Shown piece after piece: positions 12,787-50,360 of a stretch of DNA of 64,000 bases; within the stretch, counting starts at the first letter, position 1; each line of letters starts with the position of its first letter. The translations under genes were made by a program, and so were the position numbers. The notes below the pieces were generated by a model. That model was given only the letters and a program-made list of their open reading frames with translations, did no database searches and was not told the origin of the DNA. The stretch spans positions 1,178,001 through 1,242,000 of the forward strand of contig ML978121.1 of assembly GCA_010015805.1 (NCBI GenBank), read 5' to 3'. The DNA is from Rhizodiscina lignyota. Its lineage: Eukaryota.

Positions 12787-13713
12787 GCGGGGGAAGCGGA
12801 AAGAGGTGAGGCTCAGGCAGAGTATGGAAGTAAGGATTGAACGACAATGGCATTGCAACCCTTTCACCGAGGACTCAGGAGAAAGTGGGCCTTGCATTGA
12901 TGACCAGCATAGAATGAAGGCCTATAGACTCGTAGCTGTTGCTGGGCGAAGGAGATTTGCACGCTTTCTCCCTTGGCCTGCTATGACGACAAAATATATA
13001 GACCGGAACGCCCTTAGAAATAAGACACTCCTTTGCATCCACATGAGCATCAACTATGCACGAAAGAGAACAGAAGGCACGACATGATGTCGTGGAGATA
13101 AGCGTTCATGTCGTCGTGGTCTCGACCATCATGTGCAGGCCACTAGACCCAGTTCAGCAACCATGATCCAAATCTAGAAGCATCTCCATGCTTGGCTTTA
13201 GGATCGGTATGGAAGAAAAAGAGCACAGATTCGATGAGTAGAAGGCTCAGAACGTTATACTTTGCTACCGGTCGCCTTGCGTTCGTAGTCTTAAGACCTA
13301 TCGCGTCTCGCGCGAAGCTTGCGCGCTGTTTGAGCAACGGCAGACATGCCGCCGATCAGGCAGTGTTCCACCAAGACACCTCGAGTGACTTGAATGCTTA
13401 ATCGTCTACTTGTAAGGTATAGATGTCGCGTCGTCGAACGTTATTGCCAATATTCCAAACTTCGCGGTAGACTGACACGCCGAGCTCGACCCGACATGAG
13501 GAAGCAACACGGAAAGGCTCGAAAATCTTAACCTTTCTTCGAGTCGATGCCTTGCAATTGTATTTGCTGATTCTGTAGAGTGCTCGTCATGTGACTTGTG
13601 CTGCATTCAACCCAATTCAAGTGTCGTGGGTCTTGGCAATTCTGAGCGCTAGACTGGGCAGGCTGCCTACTCTACCATCTTCTAACCGCTGGAATTCCTA
13701 CCGGCCAGAATAC

Positions 13714-16371
13714 ATGTATCATCAAGCGTCTTTCGCGGCATCTACTGACAACTTTCAATACGAGTCACTTCCTACGCCGACCTCGATTCGTCTCATCAAA
13801 GTCCTGTCCCCAGCCAATCCACCAGATAGTTTGCAGGTGGAGCCAAATGGAGCTCCAATCCCCCACTTGATTCAGTGTTCAGTAGAGACTATCGATCTAG
13901 CTGAGAGGGACCGTCCGAATTACTACGCACTATCTTATACTTGGGGTATTCCATTCCCCGAGACTTGGCCCACACCCAGTCAGACGAACGACCGCGCCAC
14001 CGACTATGATCCAAACAACAAGCTTCCTATCTTGTTAAATGGAAAAGTCATCTTCGTCACCAAGAATCTCTACGAGTTTCTACGCCGAGCTGAAGAAAGC
14101 GCATCGAATTCAGGCTGTCAAGAACCCAGTGGGTGTATGGTTTGGCCTGGTGATGACATTGAGCGAAGGATAGCTCCGTACAACAAGACGCCGCTGATTC
14201 GTGCTGCGGAGAAAGGTTACTATGACTACGTCTCGGATTTGATCCAGCGTGATGCAGACGTTAATGCTCAGGATAGGTTTGGTCATACTAGCCTCCATTA
14301 TGCTGCTGAGAACGGTCATCTGAGCGTGACGAAGCTGTTGCTTCGGGCGGGAGGGGATCCCACAATCAAGGACACGTCAGGCTCCACGCCCCTCGATACA
14401 GCGGAACAAGTCTCCCAACATAGAGGATTTGATCGGGAAGCGATCTGTCGTGCTCTTTGTGGGTCCGGCAAGGACGAGGCAGAGAGTAGCAGTACTGATG
14501 AAGCGTCTCTGTTCAAACATCACCTCTGGATAGACGCTATGAGTATCAACCAGAACGATGTGCCCGAGAGAAATGCTCAAGTAACACTGATGAAACGAAT
14601 CTACGAAGAAGCTGCAGGGTCAATCATATGGCTTGGGCCAGAAGACGAACACACCAAGATGGCTAAGCATACCACCACACTGATTTGCCGCGAAGCAGGA
14701 GACTGGTGGCTCAGTATGGCCTTGAATTTGGACGATGGGCACGAATCCAGATACAGCGATCCAGATGTTGAATCGAAACAGTTTGCAGCGCTAAATGGGT
14801 TGCTCCGGCGGACGTGGTTTAAGAGAATTTGGGTGATCCAGGAAATTGCAAGAGCAAAGGAGTTGCATGTCTTCTGCGGGAAATACAGATTCCCGTGGGA
14901 GGTACTGTTTGAGTACGTCCATTACAATTGCTCCCCAACCGCATTGAGGCAGTTAAAACGCACACGCCGCTTCCAGCCTGTCAAACCGCTTAGTCTTAAC
15001 AACGACATTGTTACAGACCAAATATTCACTATTCGCCTCATTACACGTGCAGATACCTGGGAGCGCAACTGCATTCAACTACATGGAAGGGAAATGGGCA
15101 AGAGCATTATTCGGAGTCTCCCCGAGAGGGAGCACCTTACGCTAGGCAACCTCTTGGTTATGGTCTGGCGGTTCAAAGCTACAGAGCCAAGGGACAGGAT
15201 CTTCGCCTTACAAGGACTCTTAGCTCACACAGCAGAAATAACCGTTGATTATGAAAGATCGATCAGTGAGATATACACAACCGCTGCACATCTTCTGATG
15301 GAAGGATCGAAAGGGCCAATCGCCGTTCCCCCGCTCTTCGGTCTTACTCTAGTAGAGCCAACAAGGATTCTGAGGCCAAAGGATAGCTTTTATCTTCCAT
15401 CTTGGGTCCCTGACTTCAACATGTACAACCCAACTGTGGCGTTTTTAAGGAACCACTATGCAGCGGGCACAGCACTACCGTTTCAACTAGACACAGGTGT
15501 AAGGAAAGATACTCTTCATCTGCAAGGCATACGTTTTGATGTCATTGACCTGTGTGAAGAAAGAGACAGGAACGTTGAAGAGAAGGTTGCGCATTTCTTT
15601 CAGCCCAAGCCAGAAGCATCTCACGTGCACGAGGAATTTCTGTATCCGCGCCCATTGTTCTGCCCCCGGAGCTTTTTCGGTATTGGATTAAGCTTGAGTC
15701 CCAGCTATCCCGGTGGAGGAACGAGAGTCGAGGCACTCTGGCGCACCGCTACTAACGACTCTATTGGGAGGGACTACTCAGGCGTTAGCGACACTTACGA
15801 TACAGCTAAGAACTCTTTCCGAGACTTCGTTCGTTTCCTTGTTCGAGATCGGGCACCGCGTGATGTCGTTTTGCGGAACATGATCTGTCAGCTGGCTGCA
15901 GATGATGCTTCGAATTCGCTGCCGGCCTCCGACGAGTTCATTCAAGATGGTATTCCGCCAGAGCAGAGGCGATATCATGACGTATCAGATGCTCTTCCGT
16001 GGGACACTATTTGGCAGCAAACAAATTATAACGTTGCTATTGACCTCTTGTTATGGTCACCGGCCTTAGTCAATCATCCTCAGGGCGAAGTGTTCTTCAA
16101 CGACGCGATGTACAAGTACTACCGTTGGCGTCGACTTTACAAGACTTCGACAGGATATCTAGGACTCGGGCCAAGAAGTGTTCGGCCGGGAGATGAGATT
16201 TGGCTGATTGCGGGGGCGCAGACGCCGTTCGTGCTTAGACGAGTCAACTCGAATATCTCACAAGATGGCAGAAAGTTCGAGCTGGTCGGGGAGACCTACG
16301 TCCACGGGATCATGGAAGGTGAAGCGGCAAAGGGACGCGAAAACGATGTCGAAGACATTACGCTTATATAG
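13714..16371 (+). CDS. HET-domain (HET-6-like) heterokaryon incompatibility protein with internal ankyrin repeats
   Basis: HET blocks YYALSYTWG, LWIDAMSINQND..ERNAQV..M..IY, WFKRIWVIQE, ATEPRDRIFAL, LPSWVPD, and HET-6-type C-terminus GYLGLGP...LVGETYVHGIMEGE. Ankyrin motifs TPLIRAA and TSLHYAAENGH. Intronless; first ATG at 13714. Confidence 0.9.
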   Translation: MYHQASFAASTDNFQYESLPTPTSIRLIKVLSPANPPDSLQVEPNGAPIPHLIQCSVETIDLAERDRPNYYALSYTWGIPFPETWPTPSQTNDRATDYDPNNKLPILLNGKVIFVTKNLYEFLRRAEESASNSGCQEPSGCMVWPGDDIERRIAPYNKTPLIRAAEKGYYDYVSDLIQRDADVNAQDRFGHTSLHYAAENGHLSVTKLLLRAGGDPTIKDTSGSTPLDTAEQVSQHRGFDREAICRALCGSGKDEAESSSTDEASLFKHHLWIDAMSINQNDVPERNAQVTLMKRIYEEAAGSIIWLGPEDEHTKMAKHTTTLICREAGDWWLSMALNLDDGHESRYSDPDVESKQFAALNGLLRRTWFKRIWVIQEIARAKELHVFCGKYRFPWEVLFEYVHYNCSPTALRQLKRTRRFQPVKPLSLNNDIVTDQIFTIRLITRADTWERNCIQLHGREMGKSIIRSLPEREHLTLGNLLVMVWRFKATEPRDRIFALQGLLAHTAEITVDYERSISEIYTTAAHLLMEGSKGPIAVPPLFGLTLVEPTRILRPKDSFYLPSWVPDFNMYNPTVAFLRNHYAAGTALPFQLDTGVRKDTLHLQGIRFDVIDLCEERDRNVEEKVAHFFQPKPEASHVHEEFLYPRPLFCPRSFFGIGLSLSPSYPGGGTRVEALWRTATNDSIGRDYSGVSDTYDTAKNSFRDFVRFLVRDRAPRDVVLRNMICQLAADDASNSLPASDEFIQDGIPPEQRRYHDVSDALPWDTIWQQTNYNVAIDLLLWSPALVNHPQGEVFFNDAMYKYYRWRRLYKTSTGYLGLGPRSVRPGDEIWLIAGAQTPFVLRRVNSNISQDGRKFELVGETYVHGIMEGEAAKGRENDVEDITLI

Positions 16372-38505: not shown

Positions 38506-41500
38506 CTAAGGACAAGTATTACCTCCGCAATTATCGTTGCACCACTCTGTACACAAAATCTGCCCTTCACAGCAGCTAACAGCGCATGTTAAGCTCCCAA
38601 TGTCTACTCCCCTATCAATACAAGACTGGAACGGTGTCTCTGTCGCTGGTGGTTCCCCACCGCCATCACATAAACAAGCCTCTGCGACAAACGTGCATCC
38701 AGCCCCACACGGGTTCGAGCCTGCCGCCGGCGTCGAGGGTGTTGGCGGAGACGTAGAGGACGTAGGCGAAGGCGAAGGCGAAGGCGGAGGCGAAGGGCTT
38801 TCAGGACTGCTCGGAAACGTAGGTGTGCCTGGGATAGACGGCGGCGTGAAAAGTTGCGAGATGTTGTAGATTTCGCCTTCAATCGACCAGACACCTCCAA
38901 ACGTATTTTGCGCTTTGAGACAGGTATCGATGATCGCATTCAAAGCCTCCATACAATGCGGCAGAGGATGCAGTGCGATATTGTCAGTTCGCTGGATGTC
39001 CAGGCCAATAGAACCGGTACTGAAAGTGATATGGTTCGGCCCTTGGCTAGAGTCAAACGAAGTGTCGCAATTCCGCGTAAGAGCATCGTTTGGAGTCAAG
39101 GCGTTAGCAATATCAGTGCCAGAGAACTCGTTGTTGTTGATGGGATCTCCACACTTAAGATCACCAGTAGGGGTCGCAGCGGGCGAATCAGTTGGTGACG
39201 ATGGATCTGAGGCGGTTGATGAGGGCTGAGACGCGGGGCACGCTTGTCGTTTCTGGTTATTCTGGTTACCAGGAGGGGTGGGGACGCGCTGGTTATCGAA
39301 GCTTCCCCAGTCGTCAGTAAAATCTACTGGGTTGCTCTCAATTTGCAGACGCCATCTGGAATTTTGGCAGGGAGTTCTCCTCTGATCTGCCTCATATTGT
39401 ATGACCACTTTGCCTGTTGGGTCCTGGAAGTTTGGGTCATTTCTAATCGCCTCATAAGGTAGAATCGTTCCCCGAGTGTTGAGTAATTGCTGGAGGGTGT
39501 TCTGGATTTGGTCAACCTCATTTTGATACTGCAGCCTTTGTGCGTTTATAGGGCCCCCTGGTCTGCCACTGGGAGTGACGATAAACGCTTTCGGGCTGAA
39601 CACCGAATTAAGAATTTGGCCTGGACCGGTAAAGTCGGCGATGCCAAACTGAAAGGTGTTCGTACCGTCTCCATGGGGAAGCGTATTGATAACATCGTGG
39701 AGGAAAAGTGGAGAAGGGGTAAACTGCTCGTCTATTACAAAAGATGGGTTCTCCCAGAAATGAGTAACAAAGGCTCCCATTCGAGATACCACTATAACGG
39801 AGGTACAGCCGTAGAGGCCCGTCACACCGGTGACTAGATTTTGATCGTTGAATTGCACTGCTGTTGCTGTAGAGACACCTAGTGTTCCGGCTGCGTTCAC
39901 CCCGTGTCGTACCAAGTTTGCAGAATTCAACGACAACAGCAGTCTGATGAACTCCCCAGCATCGAGTCCGGAGTCCTGGGCAGTGACCATTTGACGCTTT
40001 GAAATGCTGTGCAGAGGGGACGTCGTCTCGTTATCTGAAGTAGACAGTGGGTCGGACGATTTCAGAACTGGCTCTGGAATAAACGTGGAGCTTCCAAGAG
40101 CCCGTTTCGCCGGTGGCCCTGGATTGGCAGTCTCGACAGGAATGTCTGGAATTCCGCCAGCGTCTGTAGTGCAGCTACTACAAGATACACCTGCAGGTGC
40201 CGAAGGATGGTCATTGTTCAGGCACACAGGGTTTGTTGCAGCACATAAGGCAACGCTGCTGGTCGTGGTAGTCGTTGTCACTGTAGTCGCACTGCACAAC
40301 CCAGTGGTGGATGTACACGATGTAGTTGATGTAGAACAGTCGGTGTCAGCTGTCGTACTGGACGGGCAAACGAGGGTAACAACACAGGACGACACCGGGG
40401 TCGTGGTTGTGCAAGAGGAAGAACTGGAACTGGAGGAACTGGAACTGGAACTGGAGGAACTGGAACTGGAACTGGAAGAACTGGAACTGGTGTTCCCGCT
40501 ATCGTCGTTGTTATCATCCCCGTTATCGTCATCATCGCCGGAATCTGGAACGTCGCTAGCATCTGGGAATAGTTCTGGTACGAATGCCGCTGGTAAAACT
40601 CCGATCGGAAGAACAAGTTCGAATGCAGAGGTGATTGTTACAGTTACAGGTGAACCCCCTAAAACAGTGATTAGTTACACTTACGACGTCGATTCTCTAG
40701 AACAGGAACATACCTAGGAGCAAAAGTAATGCAAGCGGTGCAGCATCATCAATATCAGGCAGGTTATCCCGCTGGTCTTTTGGAAGTGTCTCTTTTGTAA
40801 AGGCTGCTGTTTCTGTGGGGTTTGACGGATTTGTAACCACGGCAGAGGACGCAATATGAGCAGGAAGATTCACTGATATTGAGGTGCTGGTGAACGTGGA
40901 TGTAGGCGGATGCAAAGCTGGTGCAACTGTGACTATCACCCCAGGCCCATCAGATTGCGATGATGGATCAGGCGAGGGCGTTGGGAGCGAAGGAGCGTTC
41001 GGAGGAGGCGTTACTGGCGGGGAAGGGCTGTTAGTTGGAGGGTCCGTAGGTGCGGGCTCAGTTGGAGGGTCCGTAGGTGCGGGCTCAGTTGGAGAATCGG
41101 TAGGAGAGCTTCCGGTCGAAGAGCTGTCGGTTGCCGTAGGTACAGCAACTGTGCTCACAGGAACTGTCTGACCTCCAATTACCAATCCCGAAGTGATGGC
41201 AGAAATAGTAGTAGAATCGATTACGAGTACGGGGCCTCCAGCAGAAAGAGTATCCGTGGTCTGCGATCTAGGAAGACTAAATACTCCAGGAGAAATTTCC
41301 ACAGCAGTGATTGTAAACGCGTTCCCAGCGGTACCAGTCAAGGTAATCAACTCTCCTGCTGTACTTGAGAGTGACGGATCGGATGGGGAGCTTCCCGTTG
41401 GAGAAGGCGCGCTGTCCCCTGGGTCTGAAGTTGGATCGGGAGGGAAAATCGGTGTAATGCTACCAACATCGGTCGTAGACACAGAAGTGTCAGAGGTCGA

Positions 41501-41638
41501 AATCGGATCGGAGGGCAGAATTGGCGTGATCGTATCATCGGTAGAGCTTGGATCGGATGGTGAAGGAGAGACAGGATCCTGGGCAAGTGCTGCCTGAACT
41601 CCAAAGAGAAGAAGAAGATAGCTGAGTTTACAAATCAT
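38506..41638 (-). CDS. Large secreted modular protein (~1025 aa): signal peptide, S/T/P-rich region, KR-flanked Cys/His domain, KP4/Hce2-like and Cys-rich C-terminal modules
   Basis: Signal MICKLSYLLLLFGVQAALA. Intron 40713-40659 (GTATGT..CTAAT..TAG) fuses the 40697-41686 ORF in frame to the poly-Ser segment and the 38506-40395 ORF. Confidence 0.8.
40415..40490 (-). repeat. Poly-Ser coding microsatellite (GAACTG/GAG units)
   Basis: Repeated gaactggaactggag on the + strand reads AGT TCC TCC on the coding strand. Confidence 0.85.
41033..41100 (-). repeat. 27-bp coding tandem repeat (PTEPAPTDP), ~2.4 copies
   Basis: agttggagggtccgtaggtgcgggctc repeated directly. Confidence 0.85.
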
Positions 41639-42599
41639 GCCTTCGACAAATATGAAGATAGGAGACAATGAAAAGAGAAAATCCAAATTGAGACCTAAGG
41701 AAATATGAGAATAGGAAAATGAAATAAGGAAAACAAAGCAAGGGAATACGATTTCAGAAGATGTGATGCGAAGCTTGAATGCGAAGCACTCTCATTCTTA
41801 GGGCTCAGAAAGATTTTATACCTTTCTTCTAGTGGGCTCGTTTAGTTCTGTCATGAAATAGAATATCCGAGTCTGAGATTGATTGAATAGGTTGAAAATA
41901 GAACGGACGGAAACATGAAGTCCTCATACTCAACGTTGACAGTTCTGCGTAGAAAGATGAAGCCATAGTCGGAATAGTCGGTAAGATGACAAGAGTTGTA
42001 CATCGCTAAAAGAGTCGACTCCGATCAGAATATCGTGTGCAAGACCTCGCGCTAGCACACATGTGGCGCCTGTTGCCTGTCTGACGAGTTAGTAGTAGGT
42101 GTGAGTGGCAGTGTAGTGTCAAGGATGACAATAGTGCTGATGCGACGTGCTAGAGCAATTTCAGGGGCGGACCGTCACAGGAAGCTTTCCCGTAGTTTTA
42201 CTACACGCCAAGCCACCTATCAGGATTAGAGCTTCCAGCAATTGCCTTAACAAGCATAGTGGCAGGGTTGAGCATGAGTTTGAACTGACCTCGTTCGTCC
42301 ATCGTTCGTCCACGAGAATGTCTTGCGCTCACGTCCACACGACGGCGTAGGATATCAGCGTCCCTTATCTAGTCGCTTGGCGGGCTTGCGCTAGTTTGTA
42401 AAGTGGAAGTCGGGGCGGATGGCGGTAGTGGCGAGTCAGTCCTCCTCAGTTGATCCCAAAGATACTCCGTATCTTTGTGAGCTTCGCCAAAGATAACAAG
42501 GGTCAAAATGTATGAACTGCTCGCCGGATCGATGTCAGTCATCACTGTTGTCTACAGAATGACGGCTCTTCACGATCCCGCCGGCTGTCAGCGAGCGAT

Positions 42600-44874
42600 T
42601 CGAGAGCACGAATGTTGAGACGTAGTTAAAAGTAAGTTGTGTTCTTCAGCAGGAGCTAGAGCATCTCTGAAAGTTCGACTAAATATACACCGGAATGTAT
42701 TTATCTAAAACACGCAGTAAGGGCATTCTTCTGTTCTTCTGTACCATCAGGGATACTCGATCTTCCTGCCGTTTATAGTCCGAAACAAACAACTGGAGCA
42801 CGAGGATATACATCCTCGTAGTTCTATATATTGTAGCCACGACTCAACTATTTTGTCACCCACTTGATCGGGTCGCATTTCAGGACCCACCCGAACCAAG
42901 TCGATGATGGATTGACAGAACATCCCTGCATACAGCTTTGGCGCGAACGGGATGGGATTTCCATTGGCATCGTAGTCATCTACCCATCCTGGAAATTCCA
43001 GCCATACAGTGAGCTCACGATCATCTGCAGTGGTGAAGATCGCTTTCATGGCTAACAGATGGGCATTCTCGTAGCGGGCTGACACCGGGAGGTGCGGTGC
43101 GAACCTGTGCGGGTGGGGCTCTGGACCCGGTGCGATTTCTGCCTTCAGGAGGTAGTTGACGGGTTTTCCGAGCTCCACATCCATGCCAGCTTGCTCCAGT
43201 GCCCGAAGGGTGTACTCATTTACGCGCAGGCACAAGGGACCATAGTTGATGGTGATGCTTCGTTTCCTGTAGTATAAAAGTGGTGTCGCGAAGCCCCGAA
43301 TGCCGACACCAAGGAAGGTCCATTTGTTTGTTGATAGATCTTCGTAGATGGGAATGGCTTTATTGGTGCCTATGTACCCAAGAGCAGCCCTCATTTGGAA
43401 TACTTTGTTGGTGGTGCTGGGTGGCACAGATTCACTCTTGGTGAGCGTGCGGACCAAAGAATTGGGAATGATCTTCGTCAACCTGTTCAAACGAGATTCC
43501 GTGAGGGCAACATCCGCGAATGCATTCAGCACCACCATCATCGCAAATTCGAAAAGGTAGAAATGTGAGCTTGTGAGCGAAAACACACGCTGTCGATTCG
43601 AGAAATGCGAGCGGAAACCAATCGATGGTGCGCCCGTAGTCGCGCCATATGTCGTAGAGCACCTTTTTCTTTCCCTTCTCAGGCGGAGTTGTGTTGCTTC
43701 CAACGTATGATAAATCCCACCTCCGTTTTACCGACGTAGAGGTGATGCATCGTGATGGTACCGCCTGTGAGGAGCCCCGCATAAATACCGCAGTCGGTAT
43801 TTGTTCCCTTCGCTGTGTCTTTTGAGGCATTTCGAAGCGTTTCCAGATTCCACGGCTCTCCAGTGCTCAGAGCTGCGGCGATCCCGTCAGGCATGGCCTC
43901 CACTAAGCTTTCTGCCAGGCTCTCGGGTGTGGTCTCGCGGACGATTTTGCTCGAAGAGGCCGGGAGCAGTTTGTGGTTGTCGCGCATCAAGCTGAACAGT
44001 TCGCAGAAAACCTGCTTGATGAACAGCGGAGGAGTAGGGGAAGAGTTTTGTATGTTGGACGTTTGGACATTGGATGAAGAGGATGGCTGATGGCTTGACG
44101 AAGAGTGGTGGCCGGTGAAGGATGAGGTTTGAGCAGCTGAAAAGGTGGGTGAGGGTTAGCAAAGGAAGTTCGGGCGGTTGGGTATGGAGTTTAAGTGCCT
44201 GGGATTGACGCCCGAGCGTCGGGAACTTGAGCGTCGGAGAGCTGAGCACTGGAGGCGCGAGTATCGGAGGAAGAGGAAGACATGCCACCCGAAAGAGGAA
44301 CCTGAGCCTTAGAGAGCTGAGCACTGGATGCCTGAGTATGGGACGAAGAGGAAGAAGACAGGCCACCAGAAAAAGGAACCTAAGCAATGGAGGCCTGAGT
44401 ATGGGATGAAGAGGAAGAAGACAGGCTACCAGAAAAAGGGACCTGAGCGCTGGAGACCTGAGCATTGAACGAAGAGGGAGGCTGGCCACCTGAAAATGGC
44501 TGTTGAGCGCCCGAGACCTGAGCATTAGATGAGGAGGGAGGCTGGCCACCTGGAAAAGGCACCTGAGCGCTCGAGACCTGAGTATTAGATGAGGAGGAAG
44601 ACAGGCCACCTGGAAAAGGCACCTGAGCGCTGAAGGCTTGAGCATTGAACGAAGAGGGAGGCAGGCCACCTGAAAAGGTCACCTGAGTGTTGGAGACTTG
44701 AGTATTGAACGAAGAGGAAGGCAGATCACCTGAAAAGGGCTGTTGAGCGTTGGAGGAAGAGGCTTGGGTGCTTGATGTTTGATTTGGAAGACGTGGTCGC
44801 TTCGTGACAAAGCGGTCCATAGTATTCTTCTGTGTACTTGGAGTACGGGGAGCAGCTCTCTTGAGTGCTACCAT
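42600..44874 (-). pseudogene. GIY-YIG nuclease-family gene, copy A (disrupted)
   Basis: CGIYAG..HLYVGKTE..RWKQH. In-frame TAG at 44380-44382 where sibling repeats have CAG, and two frameshifts (~43680, ~43600) relative to copy B. Collinear with the 48593-50300 copy. Confidence 0.8.
44225..44760 (-). repeat. ~60-63-bp coding minisatellite (PFSGGLPSSSFNAQVSSAQV-like), ~8 copies
   Basis: Lines 44461-44760 align in register (agcattgaacgaagagggag..ggccacctgaaaa..cctgagcgc). Confidence 0.9.
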
Positions 44875-45679
44875 GGTGATAGCCTGCATGTGAATTAGTA
44901 AGATTATGAAGAAAGGAGAGGTGTAGACTTACTGACGCAAGACAGACGGCACAAGTTGGAAGTCAGGGAAAAAATGAAGTCGGATCAGCTCTTTCGGAGC
45001 AGACCGCCTTTTCGAGACTTTGAGGTGTAGCACGATGAATGGGACTCCAAGGACAGTTTGGAGGAACAGTTGACAGCAACAATTGGGAGGTGATGTGAAG
45101 CGTAATCGTATAAGGCCAGATGGCAGTAAAGTAGCTCTGAGGAAGAGCAAGAGGAAAATTCGAGTGCGGAGGCAAATAACTGCGTGCGCATCGCGCCAAG
45201 AGGTTGGGAGGGAAGGCGCGTAGGGGGAGACATCGTCGGAAGGAAGGTACGAGCCAGGACCCACGTAAGAGGATCCTGTGACTTGTTTAAGCCGTCCTTA
45301 GGGATCTAAGGATGTAAGTTAAAGGTGAGACTCAATTAAGAGATGATCTAAAGGGAATGTAGCTTCAACGGTTGTAAAGAGAGGAGTCAGTCGAACTTTA
45401 CTGTACGATAACTAGACTAATTTATCTAGCTATCGTAGTACTTAGAGTCATGTTGTCATGAATCCATGAGAAACATTAGCCAAAGTGAATGCGTCAAGAA
45501 AGGTAAGAGGCAGAATCTCATTCTCTCCCGGTACATGCCCTCTAACACCGCTAAGAGATAAAGACCCTACCGAGCAGACACCTACTCGACACTAGTGACA
45601 TCCATTTCATCGGAGGAGAGTGCACGCTAGAAGTAGAATTAGTAAATGACTAGACAATGGGAGAGAGGGCATACCCAAA

Positions 45680-46145
45680 AGATTATGAAGAAAGGGAGAG
45701 GTGTAGACCTACGGACGCAAGACAGGCGTCACACGTTGTAAGCTAAGGGCATCCGTGACAGCATCGTTGGCAAAGGCGTTCAGTATGACTATGAAGGCAA
45801 ATTCGAACAGGTAGAAATGCGGCGTTGTAAGAACAGTCGCGCCCCCCCAGTCGTGGTGAAGACAGCTTTGATCGCTAGAAGGTAGTGCGCTGTGGGATAT
45901 TAGGCTGACACTGGCACGCGGGTGACAAAATAGTTGAGCCCGATTAATTGAACACGCGCAGCAAGGGCAAGTTTAGCTCTTCAGCACAGGCGAGAGCATC
46001 TCTAAAAGCTCGATTTAATATATATTAGATAGTATTTATCTGAAGTACACAGCTTTAGTGTGTATAATCTATATTAACGGAGGAGTATATACATCTTCAC
46101 GCTGAGATGTATTACAGCCACGACTCAACTTTTTTGTCACCCACT
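45680..46145 (-). pseudogene. Scrambled fragments of a third GIY-YIG family copy
   Basis: 45680-45740 matches the 5' intron region of copy A (44901-44960). 45750-45832 encodes LTTPHFYLFEFAFIVILNAFANDAVTDA (copy B LTTTHFFYFEFALMATLNAFTDSALTTA). 45915-46145 matches the 3' region 50068-50300. Confidence 0.75.
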
Positions 46146-46413
46146 TGACTGCCCGGTACCTGTGGAGCGAACCGATTTGATGTTCTCGACATTGGCAAGT
46201 TATCATTAGATATAGAAGTAGAATTTTCTATAAAACTAGGTTTCCAAAGATAGAATCTGTCCTACCCTATATAAAATAGTCTGCAAATTAAAATTCAACC
46301 CAAAACACGAAAGAGTTTTTGGTATTAGTCCTTACCTCTGATTCATTGAAATATTCTGGATTAGTTGTATAAGGATATATATATGATTTTTAATTTCGAG
46401 GTAGGGTGAAATA

Positions 46414-46546
46414 GGCCCTTTAGCGCAATGCGAGTCTGCTCTTCTTCTTTTAATAAAATTAATTGCTAATGTCCCAATAGGGTAGCGCGTTGGTTTTCGG
46501 TCAAAAAGTCCACCAAAGGTTGCGCGTTCGAATCGCGTGAGGGTCG
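46414..46546 (+). tRNA. tRNA-Arg(TCG) with a canonical 10-nt anticodon-loop intron (46501-46510) and a 51-nt D-loop insert (46430-46480)
   Basis: Acceptor GGCCCTT/GAGGGTC+G, D stem GCGC/GCGC, anticodon stem TTGGT/ACCAA with loop TT-TCG-G^C, variable AGGTT, T arm GCGCG-TTCGAAT-CGCGT. Confidence 0.88.
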
Positions 46547-46554
46547 AATAAATC

Positions 46555-46563
46555 TTTTTTTTT
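46555..46563 (+). terminator. Pol III oligo-T terminator of the tRNA-Arg gene
   Basis: T9 run 9 nt after the discriminator base, with further T runs downstream. Confidence 0.8.
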
Positions 46564-47519
46564 GTGCTGTTTTTTCTTTCTTCTTTTGGGTTTTTTTTTC
46601 TAGAGTAAAATTTCTATTGCAGTTGCGATTCGTTTGGATTTTACGGAGCGAAAGTGAGCTGAGCGATTGTCAGAGTGCATTTTTGACTATTAGACAGGAC
46701 TCTTCAAGTTTCTAATAGAAACAATTTTGCGAGATCCCGAACTGAGACTGCTGTTGGATAAGAGAAGATCATCATAAACGACATCCACGACATAGATAGC
46801 AAATGTAAGCCAGCAACATTTCTAAACTTGGCCTCCTGGTTTCCGAGGCGACTCTATCCTCGAACCAGGATCGATCAAGTCGCATAACATATTTTCCTTA
46901 GCTCTAATACACCGAAAGCTATTCTCCCTAGCTCCGCCATACAACTAGTCAAAATTTATCTTCGACAAGAGACCAAGTGCGCAGGCCTCGAGATAGAATT
47001 CGTCTTGGACGGAGGAAACGACGTCTTGGTTCCATCGGACGCGGGGCTTCTCGCTCTTTTCCGAGCCTCGTCTTCCTCAGCACGTCGCTTGTTTTGGGTA
47101 TGTCCTCCTACTACTTCTATCCAACGCATCACTTGCTGACCGGGCCATAGCGAGTCATCGCCTCCACAGGAACAGGTGGAGCCGTCTAGCCGGCTGTCCA
47201 TGAAGGAGGGAGTATGGCAAGGCGGAGCGAGACTTTATCGGCGTTTGATGGATGGGGAACGGAGTAAGAGACTACCTTTTTGTTTATCTTAGGCAGATAC
47301 CTTTACAGTGCTCAGGCTGTAAAGAAAGTCTAATCTAATTCCCCTCTCCTATCTTTGCACTTCTTAGACCGCTTCACTTCGTAGACCGTTCGAACCTGCT
47401 CGAAGCACTCACTGCTCACCTCATTTCCCCCAAAGCCAAAGCCCCAAACCTCCTCCGACTTCGCCAGCATATTACGCCGCAACCGGAAGGTTCTCTGTAG
47501 CCAGTAGCTTCGGCTGTAC

Positions 47520-47915
47520 CTACCGCCTTCTTCTTGACTACTTCTTCCTCACGTCAAATACCCGGATCAACTCCTCCTTCGCCCCAGGCGCCTTCTTACT
47601 CAACTACTCCTTCCACAGTGCCTGGCACCTTCTTGGATCAACTCCTTCGCTTCAGGCGCCTTCTTCCTTAACTACTTCTTCCTCCCGTCAATCACTCGGA
47701 TTAACTCCTTCGCTTCGGGCGCCTTCTCCCTTGACTACTTCCTCTACTGTGCCTGGCGACTTCTTGGATTATCTCTTCTTCTCTTCAGGCACCTTTTCGA
47801 TCGACTACTTCCTCTGCTGTGCCTGGCGACTTCTTGGATTAACTCCTCCTTCGCTTCAGGCGCCTTGCGGCTTGACTACTTCTTCCATTCCGCCTGGCGA
47901 CTCTTTGGATTGACA
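47520..47915 (+). repeat. Degenerate ~60-70-bp tandem repeats
   Basis: Recurring gtgcctggc(g)acttcttggat..aactcc(tcc)ttcgcttcaggcgccttc..ttgactacttc units, ~5-6 copies, with no long intact ORF. Confidence 0.7.
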
Positions 47916-48592
47916 TCTTCTTCCTTACTTCTGGCGGCTCAAGTCACGCGCAGAATAACAAGAATAACGCCTCCAACTCCTTAGATAGTTTCCGACTTTC
48001 CAATTCCTCACGTAGTAATTCGCCTCCTAAATAGTACTCAACTCCTGCTTACAATTCAACAGGTTTTCCGTCCGTCCATCGCTCGAGGCATCCGAGAGCT
48101 CATGGCCTCGCAAGCCACTACAATCCATTCCAAGGACAACCAACCCCAACGGCAACCCATCGCAATGCTGCAAGAATCTAGTGCAGTGCAATCCATCTAC
48201 TTGCGTCTTGTATTTAGCTCCAATGTCGTCCACTATGCATTGCGGTTTTTTCAACTTCAACGTGGTGGTGCCGCCTCGTGCCTCCCTCGCATCGCGCCTT
48301 CCCTTCCAACTCTCTCGAGCCCCTAGCGCGTTTCGTCTCGCGCACATCAAATCTTTTGTGGGAAGATGGCAATGTACTTATCCTCTTTGTCTGTTTCTTC
48401 GCCTCCGGTGCTCTCTGTCTCTCGGCGATCTCTTCTTCTCAGCTCCAGGGCAGCTCCAGGACGTTAATATTGTCGGCACTCCTCCTTGTACACTCTCCAT
48501 CCAGTTCAGCTGCTTGCGCGCTCTGGATCGTATTTGTAAGTCATCTGCCCTCTCGTCACCTTAATGGTCTAGCTAACTCGACTAGCTGCAAG

Positions 48593-50360
48593 ATGGTGGC
48601 CATGAAGAGGAAGAATGGTCAGAGTACCTTGGATTCTTTCGTTGTCAAGCGTCCACGGGCTACTACCGACAATGTCGATGTACTTCTTAATCAAGCTTCC
48701 CTCCACGCGGACTTCCACGGCCTTGATGTCGCCAATAATGAACTCCTCTCTGCATTCAGCACTGTCGTCACGCCCGCCGCTCAGAAGTTCATGACCCCTT
48801 CTATCGCGACTCCTGCCTTTTCGATTCATAATACATTCCTCTTGCTATTCAAGGCTCTTCGGAATGAGAGAAAGAGTCTGCCCGGTCCAATGGCAGACCT
48901 TGCACAGCGCGAGCTTCCTGAGCAGCTGGCAGACTGCTTAATTGCAGCTATGCCGGGTGGTCTGATTGAGGTGATGAGTGCTGGTCGCCCGTGGATCCTG
49001 GAAGAGCTGAGAGACTCCTGCTACCGCTCCAGGAAATGCAACAAAACGGATTGCGGCATATACGCAGGCTTGCTCAAGAGTGCCGTGCGTCATCTTTATG
49101 TCGGAAAGACGGAGGTAACGTTCATGGCCAGGACCAACCAGCACATCGCGAGCAAGAATGCCGGCCACGAGAAGTTCTTCTATAATGTCTGGCGAGAGAG
49201 CGGTGCCAGCGTGGATTGGTTCTGGCTTGCCCATTTGAACAGGCAGAGAGTACTCTCGCTCACGACTACGCACTTCTTTTACTTCGAGTTCGCTCTCATG
49301 GCAACGCTCAATGCCTTTACCGATTCGGCCTTGACCACTGCGCGGCTCGAAAAGTGGTGTCGCCTCGTACCCGACCCGCTCTTAAGGATGCTCTCTGGCG
49401 GCAAGATGGTTCCCGACTCAGCCTTGGGCAAGATTCAGCAGATGCGTGAGGCACTCAAGTACAGAGGGACCAATGTCAGCATCCCCTTGTGTGAGGACCG
49501 AAGCGAATTCAATCTTGCCTATGGAGCTACCGGAGTATGGCAAAGCGCCACGTTGACCCAGACCAAGAGAGGCAAGAAGACTACCAGAGTCTTTCAGCTT
49601 TGCGTCGGCGCAATCCGTGTGAATCTCTACGAGAATGAGATCGCCGCGCTAGAGAATACTGGTATCGTTATACCACTGAAGAAGTCGGTCATGTACCTGC
49701 TTCAAGTCGAGATTGCTCAGGGTCCCGTGCCTCATCCCCAGCGGTTTGCCCCTGAAGTCCCTATTTCCACCAGGCACGAAGACGCACACTTGCTTGGCAT
49801 CAAGGCAATCTTTCAGACCGTCGACAACCGCGATGCAGGAATCTAGTTACGAATGCCGCAGTTATAGAATGTTTACGACGAGGACAGCAACGCCATCCCA
49901 TTTGCCCCTACTATTTACCGGGCAATGCTCTGCATGTCGGTCATTGACGTAGTGCGCGCTGGTCCTGGCAATCGCTCAATCGTGCTTCCTTCAAACCGAG
50001 GACATGTCAAATGCACTAGCGGCGAAGCGACAAAGCACATTCAGTTCAGAACTGAGAATAACTCCGTAAGTGGGTGACAAAATAGTTGAGTCGTGGCTGT
50101 AATATATCTCAGCATGAGATGTATATACTCCTCCGTTAATATAGATTATACACACTAAAGCGGTGTGATTTAGATAAATGAACTCTAGTATATAACTTAT
50201 CGACCTTCCAGAGATGCTCTTGCTAGCATTGAAGAGGAAACCTCAATTCTACTAAACATGTTCAACCTTCACAAGAGTCAACTATTTTATCACCCTCGTG
50301 CCGATTTCTCCGGAACTAATCGAATGAATGTGCTGGCTCCTCAGCACGCTGACAAGCACA
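48593..50360 (+). pseudogene. GIY-YIG nuclease-family gene, copy B (N-terminal 417 codons open; C-terminus has premature stops)
   Basis: ATG 48593 follows intron 48536-48585. CGIYAG..HLYVGKTE..RTNQH..FYFE..GTN. TAG at 49844 aligns to W in copy A, and homology continues past it (IPFAPTIY..SVIDVVRAGP..VGDKIVESWL). Confidence 0.8.

Follow-up and report, generated by a model that had tools for sequence, protein, structure and literature searches.

In eukaryotes, the canonical intron of nuclear transfer RNA (tRNA) genes lies between positions 37 and 38 and is removed by the SEN endonuclease together with tRNA ligase (Phizicky & Hopper 2023, PMC10275265; van Hoof et al. 2025, PMC12530127). The accessible parts of these reviews treat tRNA splicing as spliceosome-independent and the different types of introns as separate, and the accessible part of a 2026 review of non-canonical splicing likewise treats tRNA splicing as independent of the spliceosome. 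Ectopic tRNA introns marked by a bulge-helix-bulge motif are described, in those portions of the sources that were available, from Cyanidioschyzon merolae, nucleomorphs and archaea (PMC3978253, PMC9602550). Spliceosomal introns, for their part, are documented in several other structural RNA genes. The U6 gene of Schizosaccharomyces pombe, which RNA polymerase III (Pol III) transcribes, contains a spliceosome-removed intron that holds the B block (Tani & Ohshima 1989, in PMC5855946), fungal U6 genes have up to four messenger RNA (mRNA)-type introns at many sites (survey of Canzler et al. 2016, in PMC5855946), and ascomycete nuclear ribosomal DNA (rDNA) also has spliceosomal introns (Bhattacharya et al. 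2000, cited in PMC5855946). The non-coding RNAs listed with spliceosomal introns in the accessible part of that article are U6, U2, U5, U1 and ribosomal RNA (rRNA), with tRNA not figuring in the list. Here we describe a tRNA-Arg(TCG) gene from a 64,000-nucleotide (nt) stretch of the genome of Rhizodiscina lignyota (contig ML978121.1, positions 1,178,001 to 1,242,000; the whole stretch is hereafter the window) that appears to combine a canonical tRNA intron with a second intron of the spliceosomal type. We also present evidence supporting the recurrence of this architecture in fungal tRNA-Arg(UCG) genes.

The gene lies at 46414-46546 on the plus strand and, as is evident from a direct reading of the sequence, is interrupted after D-loop position 16 (Table 1). 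The initial annotation had described it as a tRNA-Arg(TCG) split in the D-loop by a 51-nt GC-AG insert and bearing in addition a 10-nt intron at 37/38; on re-reading, every coordinate was recovered as given, and the B-box, the oligo-T terminator and the upstream TATA-like tract, which it had called intact, are all in place. Since G46430 is the same base as G46481, the boundary of the insert may be shifted by one position, and this results in two equivalent placements. Its longest T run is 4 nt, and no AG occurs between the presumed branch A and the acceptor. Once both introns are removed, 21 of the 21 cloverleaf pairs are standard, with the acceptor strand reading GGCCCTT and the T-stem GCGCG. 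The spliced tRNA also contains U8, A14, G18-G19, U33, the T-loop TTCGA and C61, which we take to be the conserved positions of such molecules, and the A-box assignment similarly relies on what we take to be its consensus. The cloverleaf has a free energy of -25.6 kcal/mol and the minimum free energy structure, which folds differently, one of -28.0 kcal/mol, a comparison that we judged uninformative. The 10-nt intron sits on a 5-base-pair (bp) anticodon stem. No open reading frame (ORF) of at least 120 amino acids is present in 45297-47368, and the tRNA gene is therefore intergenic.

Table 1. Parts of the split tRNA-Arg(TCG) gene and its flanking signals, in window coordinates
Feature	Position	Strand	Remarks
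Upstream TATA-like tract	46368..46386	+	28-46 nt 5' of mature end; sequence reading
tRNA exon 1	46414..46429	+	Acceptor 5' strand, U8, A9, D-stem 5' strand, D-loop A14-A15-U16
A-box-like stretch	46421..46431	+	Extends 2 nt into insert
Spliceosomal-type (GC-AG) insert, 51 nt	46430..46480	+	In D-loop, positions 16 / 18
Donor GCGAGT, GC variant of GTGAGT	46430..46435	+	Sequence reading
Branch motif GCTAAT	46465..46470	+	Presumed branch A 46469, 11 nt from the insert's last base
Acceptor TAG	46478..46480	+	Sequence reading
tRNA exon 2	46481..46500	+	G18-G19 onward, D-stem 3' strand, anticodon-stem 5' strand, loop
Anticodon TCG	46497..46499	+	In exon 2
G37	46500	+	In exon 2
Canonical 10-nt tRNA intron, 37/38	46501..46510	+	ARAGORN i(37,10) after exact insert deletion
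tRNA exon 3	46511..46546	+	Position 38, anticodon-stem 3' strand, variable loop, T-arm, acceptor 3' strand, discriminator G
B-box-like stretch	46525..46535	+	Consensus match 8/10
T9 run, Pol III-type terminator	46555..46563	+	9 nt 3' of gene

The best explanation for these observations is probably a functional nuclear tRNA-Arg(UCG) gene whose two introns differ in kind, one removed first by the spliceosome and the other subsequently by the SEN endonuclease. Under this proposal Pol III would most likely transcribe the whole length of this filamentous-ascomycete gene, and the major spliceosome would then excise the 51-nt insert by means of the GCGAGU donor, the UGCUAAU branch site and the UAG acceptor, thereby joining U16 to G18. 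The elbow between the D-loop and the T-loop would be unable to form until the insert is gone. The SEN endonuclease and tRNA ligase would next excise the 10-nt intron, with RNase P, RNase Z and CCA addition carrying out the final steps. We infer both this order of events and the identity of the polymerase.

On the intact 64-kb window no tRNA is reported either by ARAGORN, with intron search on or off, or by Rfam at the gathering score, in line with the earlier expectation that standard finders would miss the gene. At a relaxed threshold the Rfam tRNA model matches 46471-46546 with 16.8 bits (gathering score 29); we rejected this partial match as a real tRNA, as the last bases of the insert serve in it as a false acceptor arm with 3 of the 7 acceptor pairs mismatched. 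When 46430-46480 is sliced out ARAGORN does detect a tRNA, and the product of this exact deletion is called tRNA-Arg(tcg) with the intron i(37,10), which bears out the claim that precise excision yields a high-quality Arg(TCG) cloverleaf. We also ran a blind screen of 7016 candidate-intron deletions across both strands (G[TC]R..YTRAY..AG, 35-129 nt), applying ARAGORN to each product: just four products gave a tRNA, all four at the 46414-46546 locus.

The insert had also been said to match the mRNA introns of the window in size and layout. Candidates for these, and they are candidates only, were obtained by heuristic joining of ORFs; they are 49-71 nt long, start with GTAAGT, GTGAGT or GTATGT and have CTAAC, CTGAC or CTAAT branches. 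The D-loop insert fits this type, except for its GC donor and its lower GC content (33%, in a window of about 50% GC); one of the introns that had been adduced as an example, 44884-44932, is on the minus strand. A blastn search found no second copy of the 51-nt insert within the window, leaving an origin as an introner or repeat unsupported. No Rfam intron family matches 46300-46650 at E up to 10. A group I or group II self-splicing intron was rejected on this ground and because 51 nt is too short for either fold.

A search for other tRNA halves split by GT..CTRAY..AG inserts, which the initial annotation had proposed, turned out to be productive. We scanned metagenome contigs with the exact 20-nt exon 2 (46481-46500) as the query, which samples only those tRNA-Arg(UCG) genes sharing that 20-mer, and recovered 74 loci that form 59 clusters at 97% identity or above. 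Thirty-one clusters are without an extra insert, 24 have one or two inserts, three were left out as cut or broken (L012 at a contig end, L050 broken after the anticodon arm and L064 cut or unclear) and one (L052) is not a tRNA. Extra inserts are thus present in 24 of the 55 resolved tRNA-Arg(TCG) clusters (about 44%), two of them, L003 and L066, having one at the same D-loop site as the window gene. The 31 insert-free clusters are ordinary tRNA-Arg(TCG) genes with the canonical intron present or absent, and all 24 insert-bearing clusters have a canonical intron of 11-45 nt. The same 20-mer had a single match in genome contigs, by chance in a bacterial coding region, and none in viral contigs.

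Together with that of the window, 33 inserts of 46-66 nt were collected, corresponding to 26 distinct sequences. All 25 distinct metagenome inserts start with GTA (mostly as GTAAGT, GTATG or GTACG) and end with AG on the sense strand of the tRNA, with the qualification that for four loci (L003 and L066 with regard to their D-loop inserts, L043 and L051) the search patterns required G[TC]..AG and thereby imposed this feature. A YTRAY branch motif, mostly CTAAC and mostly 9-15 nt from the 3' end, is found in 23 of the 26 distinct inserts, the window's included, and the 33 listed inserts end in CAG (22), TAG (7) or AAG (4). When the placements that restore a valid T-arm and acceptor were enumerated regardless of their dinucleotides, exactly one GT..AG placement per gene was found among them; exact-equivalent placements number 1-6 per insert. 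The inserts are distributed over 11 sites, namely acceptor position 5/6 (L051), D-loop 16/18 (L003, L066 and the window), variable loop 45/46 (nine clusters) and eight T-arm sites (53/54, 54/55, 55/56, 57/58, 58/59, 59/60, 60/61 and 62/63). L003 and L066 have three introns each, one at the window's D-loop site, the canonical one and one in the T-arm, and L043 has two T-arm inserts along with the canonical intron.

These genes also elude recognition: among 29 intact insert-bearing loci ARAGORN calls none a tRNA-Arg, reporting nothing at 18 and mis-naming 11, which are the variable-loop cases, as Glu, Lys or Gly tRNAs with a 58-64-nt intron. The sets of tRNA genes annotated in fungi may therefore have systematic gaps. 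Application of ARAGORN to 35,425 candidate-intron deletions in the metagenome loci recovered tRNAs across single-insert junctions, often with the anticodon mis-set, and in this output no further split tRNA was recognised within the 400-nt flanks. The neighbouring tRNA-Gly(GCC) seen in L001, L007, L061 and L074 has the canonical intron only. The collection supports the view that the window gene is one instance of a probably recurrent architecture in tRNA-Arg(UCG) genes of fungi, and our confidence in this recurrent class is higher than that in the window's own gene. We also lean, if with some reserve, towards the more general proposal that such inserts constitute a widespread and overlooked third class of fungal tRNA intron, spliceosomal in nature and repeatedly inserted at no fewer than 11 sites in Pol III-transcribed tRNA genes, with some carrying their own B-box; tRNA-Arg(UCG), and perhaps other tRNAs, would then be spliceosome-dependent, and many of their genes would be unannotated.

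To measure constraint, genes with a common insert site were compared in 29 pairs. The exons differ at 42 of 2092 positions, or at 42 of 1512 if the 20 of 72 nt per gene that were fixed by the search are set aside, and the inserts at 599 of 1713; the corresponding values are 161/438 for the canonical introns, 731/1640 for the 5' flanks and 542/1318 for the 3' flanks. Between L003 and L066 there are no differences in the 72 exonic positions, 13/47 in the D-loop inserts and 13/48 in the T-arm inserts. The initial annotation had looked to orthologous inserts for conservation of donor, branch and acceptor, and when the metagenome inserts that share a site are aligned, nothing is conserved but the donor, the terminal AG and the branch (TCTAACA, ACTAAC). 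Judging from these alignments, almost invariant exons combined with diverged inserts are the pattern expected of real introns under purifying selection, and not of pseudogenes.

Several points nevertheless weigh against the proposal of a functional gene with two kinds of introns, some concerning the state of the window's copy and others, taken up further below, its transcription. Splicing of the window insert is a prediction from its sequence. The donor is GC here and GT in all 25 distinct metagenome inserts, and given this donor the copy could be a weakened or dead allele. The 74-locus set contains no ortholog of the window's tRNA body, as recognised by its acceptor and T-stem, and the argument from conservation therefore rests, for this gene, on analogy; its insert aligns with the D-loop inserts of L003 and L066 at the signals only. 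Moreover, an uninterrupted Arg(UCG) copy may be present elsewhere in the genome. Insert-free and insert-bearing relatives coexist in the metagenome set, as when L009 or L029 (insert-free) is compared with L019, L034 or L035 (insert-bearing), which agree fully in their exons and canonical intron and resemble one another in their leaders, and the entire comparison is limited to tRNA-Arg(UCG) genes with one exact 20-mer. The odd donor, the missing ortholog that could have revealed constraint, the possible further copies and the coexistence of both forms would all suit an inactive or decaying allele, formerly spliced or never spliced, in which the donor has changed from GT to GC and CGA is decoded by another tRNA-Arg. 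We consider such an allele unlikely: the cloverleaf pairs are without exception standard, the conserved positions named above are present, the TATA-like tract and the T9 terminator are intact, and donor positions +3 to +6, the branch motif and the acceptor all fit, whereas a copy in decay would be expected to lack one or more of them. Fungi do splice GC-AG introns whose donor is otherwise strong.

With regard to transcription, the gene is most likely transcribed end to end by Pol III. We favour this polymerase because of the upstream TATA-like tract, the retained A-box, a B-box about 91 nt downstream of it, the T9 terminator and the lack of any T run of 5 or more in the insert. Thanks to the initial G of the insert the A-box-like stretch is preserved, and the A-box to B-box spacing borders on the upper limit of the 30-90 bp range for tRNA genes given in the accessible part of PMC5855946. 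The alternative is that the spliceosomal inserts reside in genes of RNA polymerase II (Pol II), which would produce longer, capped precursors from which RNase P and RNase Z free the tRNA after splicing. The spliceosome normally assembles in a manner coupled to Pol II and the cap, and the first exons, of 16 nt plus leader here and 5 nt plus leader in L051, are very short for a capless substrate. In addition, TATA-like motifs in the region -80..-15 are commoner in insert-bearing than in insert-free cluster representatives (19/24 versus 14/31), and three inserts at 55/56, from the related L046, L048 and L056, destroy the B-box core and carry no substitute. Set against this, a T run of at least 5 is present within 40 nt downstream of 21 of the 23 insert-bearing representatives, similar to 26 of the 31 insert-free ones. 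The B-box core GTTCGA is contained in 4 of the 26 distinct inserts (L011 at 54/55; L016, L028 and L049 at 57/58), and all four belong to the seven inserts that cut the B-box core of their gene, an enrichment reached by none of 20,000 shuffles, with the proviso that L028 and L049 are close relatives, which makes the count effectively about 3/6. At 53/54 the 3' junction of the inserts rebuilds AGTTCGAGCCC. No insert of the set has a T run above 4, an avoidance that is not significant next to the 3 of 28 candidate mRNA introns of the window with a T run of at least 5. As reported in the accessible part of PMC5855946, S. pombe U6 shows that splicing of a Pol III transcript is possible. On this balance we regard transcription by Pol II as quite unlikely.

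The question of the removal machinery was approached through a test for the bulge-helix-bulge motif (two 3-nt bulges and a 4-bp helix), in which all equivalent boundary placements were allowed and both strict and relaxed criteria applied. None of the 26 distinct inserts passes under either the strict or the relaxed criteria, and in the window insert 0 of the 4 pairs of the central helix and flanking helices of 0 and 1 bp are found. Of the 39 distinct canonical introns, 11 satisfy the relaxed criteria and 36 are borne by a 5-bp anticodon stem. That the tRNA splicing endonuclease or another protein enzyme removes the inserts, their GT/GC..AG look being incidental, might be entertained in light of the ectopic D-arm and T-arm introns, several per gene, that are described in the accessible parts of PMC3978253 and PMC9602550 for C. 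merolae and archaea. Such an enzyme is very improbable here: in addition to the lack of the motif, the uniform GTA..AG ends and the CTAAC-type branch, mostly 9-15 nt from the 3' end, would be unexpected, and GT..AG is found in none of 40 distinct canonical 37/38 introns (counting the empty, no-intron class). The window insert lies at 16/18, outside 37/38, the latter position being occupied by the separate 10-nt intron alone. To our knowledge, the spliceosome is the only machinery that reads GT/GC..branch..AG signals, and we infer that it would be the agent cutting the D-loop insert.

The odds of a chance resemblance were estimated by requiring a G[TC]RAGT start, a YTRAY with its A 8-25 nt from the end and a YAG end, a combination passed by 19, 37 and 28 of 3,000,000 random 51-mers under three base compositions. 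A chance insertion, transposon footprint or assembly error resembling an intron is extremely improbable, for although the locus is present in one DNA data set only, whose contig is identical over 46200-46800 and which may be the source of the assembly itself, the three signals come together by chance in about 1 of 100,000 cases, no other copy of the insert exists in the window and the architecture recurs in 24 independent clusters.

A comparison with the described systems places the inserts closest to the introns of fungal U6 genes. Like these, they are short, have canonical donor, branch and acceptor signals and are otherwise unconserved, occur at many independent sites and are hosted by the gene of a small structural RNA of the Pol III type, which has A and B blocks as well as a TATA upstream; the GTTCGA within four of the seven inserts that cut the B-box core further recalls the intronic B block of S. 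pombe U6. Unlike U6, the tRNA host is not a component of the spliceosome, and the origin of the inserts is therefore not accounted for by reverse splicing at the active site; the same tRNA transcript also holds an endonuclease-type intron. With the introns of ascomycete rDNA they share GT-AG ends, a structural RNA gene outside Pol II as the host and a scatter over many sites, but those introns are in Pol I genes with long transcripts, which contain no second type of intron. The ectopic bulge-helix-bulge introns are comparable in their occurrence in the D-arm, the T-arm and other sites away from 37/38, in there being several per gene and in their invisibility to standard finders; the inserts differ from them in lacking the motif and having GT/GC..branch..AG signals instead. 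The 10-nt intron at 46501-46510 resembles the canonical 37/38 introns, whereas the 51-nt insert differs from them in its location, the absence of a structural motif and its mRNA splice signals. Overall, a mode akin to that of the mRNA-type introns of U6 is supported, with tRNA as a new class of host and an endonuclease intron coexisting with the insert.

In a search of the full-text literature we came across no account of a tRNA gene with spliceosomal introns; subscription journals are mostly outside the coverage of that search, and an earlier description is possible. The exact phrase 'spliceosomal introns in tRNA' does not occur in the full-text literature searched. If the proposal holds, a tRNA requiring both machineries would break down the division between the spliceosome and tRNA splicing, and tRNA would join U6, U2, U5, U1 and rRNA as a host of spliceosomal introns. 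It would also provide a second natural Pol III transcript that is a spliceosome substrate, after the U6 of fission yeast, and the decoding capacity for one arginine codon would be tied to splicing activity. With 11 sites in a 72-nt RNA, these genes furthermore offer a compact non-coding system for the study of intron gain.

The metagenome loci have some additional features. L009, L019, L029, L034, L035, L037 and L072 share a series of 5' elements, namely CTGCTGYAG, followed by TATAWA and then by ATCGAAAT directly before the gene. The presence of these elements in both insert-free and insert-bearing genes suggests that they may constitute a conserved upstream promoter, and this group of tRNA-Arg genes suggests either that the intron was lost or that there are paralogs, some having the variable-loop insert and others lacking it. 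Long canonical 37/38 introns of 39-49 nt are seen in L064, L058, L071 and L026; that of L064 contains a CGGCAGCATG-like unit repeated in tandem, and no 3' exon was found before the end of its contig. L017, L020, L022, L025, L040, L057 and L051 have no T run directly 3' of the gene and have conserved trailers such as AATYCGTAAATGTCAG. These trailers, in place of the T run, may point to co-transcription with a downstream element.

Elsewhere in the window, an ORF at 13579-16368 on the plus strand joins ankyrin repeats with a HET (heterokaryon incompatibility) domain, a combination typical of filamentous ascomycetes, and a Rogdi-family protein, the closest clusters of which are from ascomycetes, is also encoded; on these grounds the organism is a filamentous ascomycete. 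The tRNA gene is flanked by diverged copies of one gene family, at 42750-43727 (minus strand), 45692-46148, 48218-49843 (plus strand) and 50060-50307. Neither of the two long ORFs of this family, which are 48% identical over 200 amino acids (E 2e-55), matches Pfam at 1e-5; a third fragment, which is degenerate, stops about 270 nt upstream of the tRNA, and direct and inverted repeats of 25-127 nt with 70-97% identity connect all three members. Repeats are found on either side of the tRNA gene: a six-copy 60-nt tandem repeat at 44348-44815 is within a Ser-, Pro- and Gln-rich ORF, and repeats of about 70 nt, in four or five copies that are 60-88% identical, occupy 47533-47920 on the opposite flank. 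Finally, 38506-41791 on the minus strand contains adjacent ORFs of 722 and 364 amino acids that are strongly enriched in Ser, Thr and Pro and include long stretches of poly-Ser, the predicted products of which look like secreted or cell-wall proteins.

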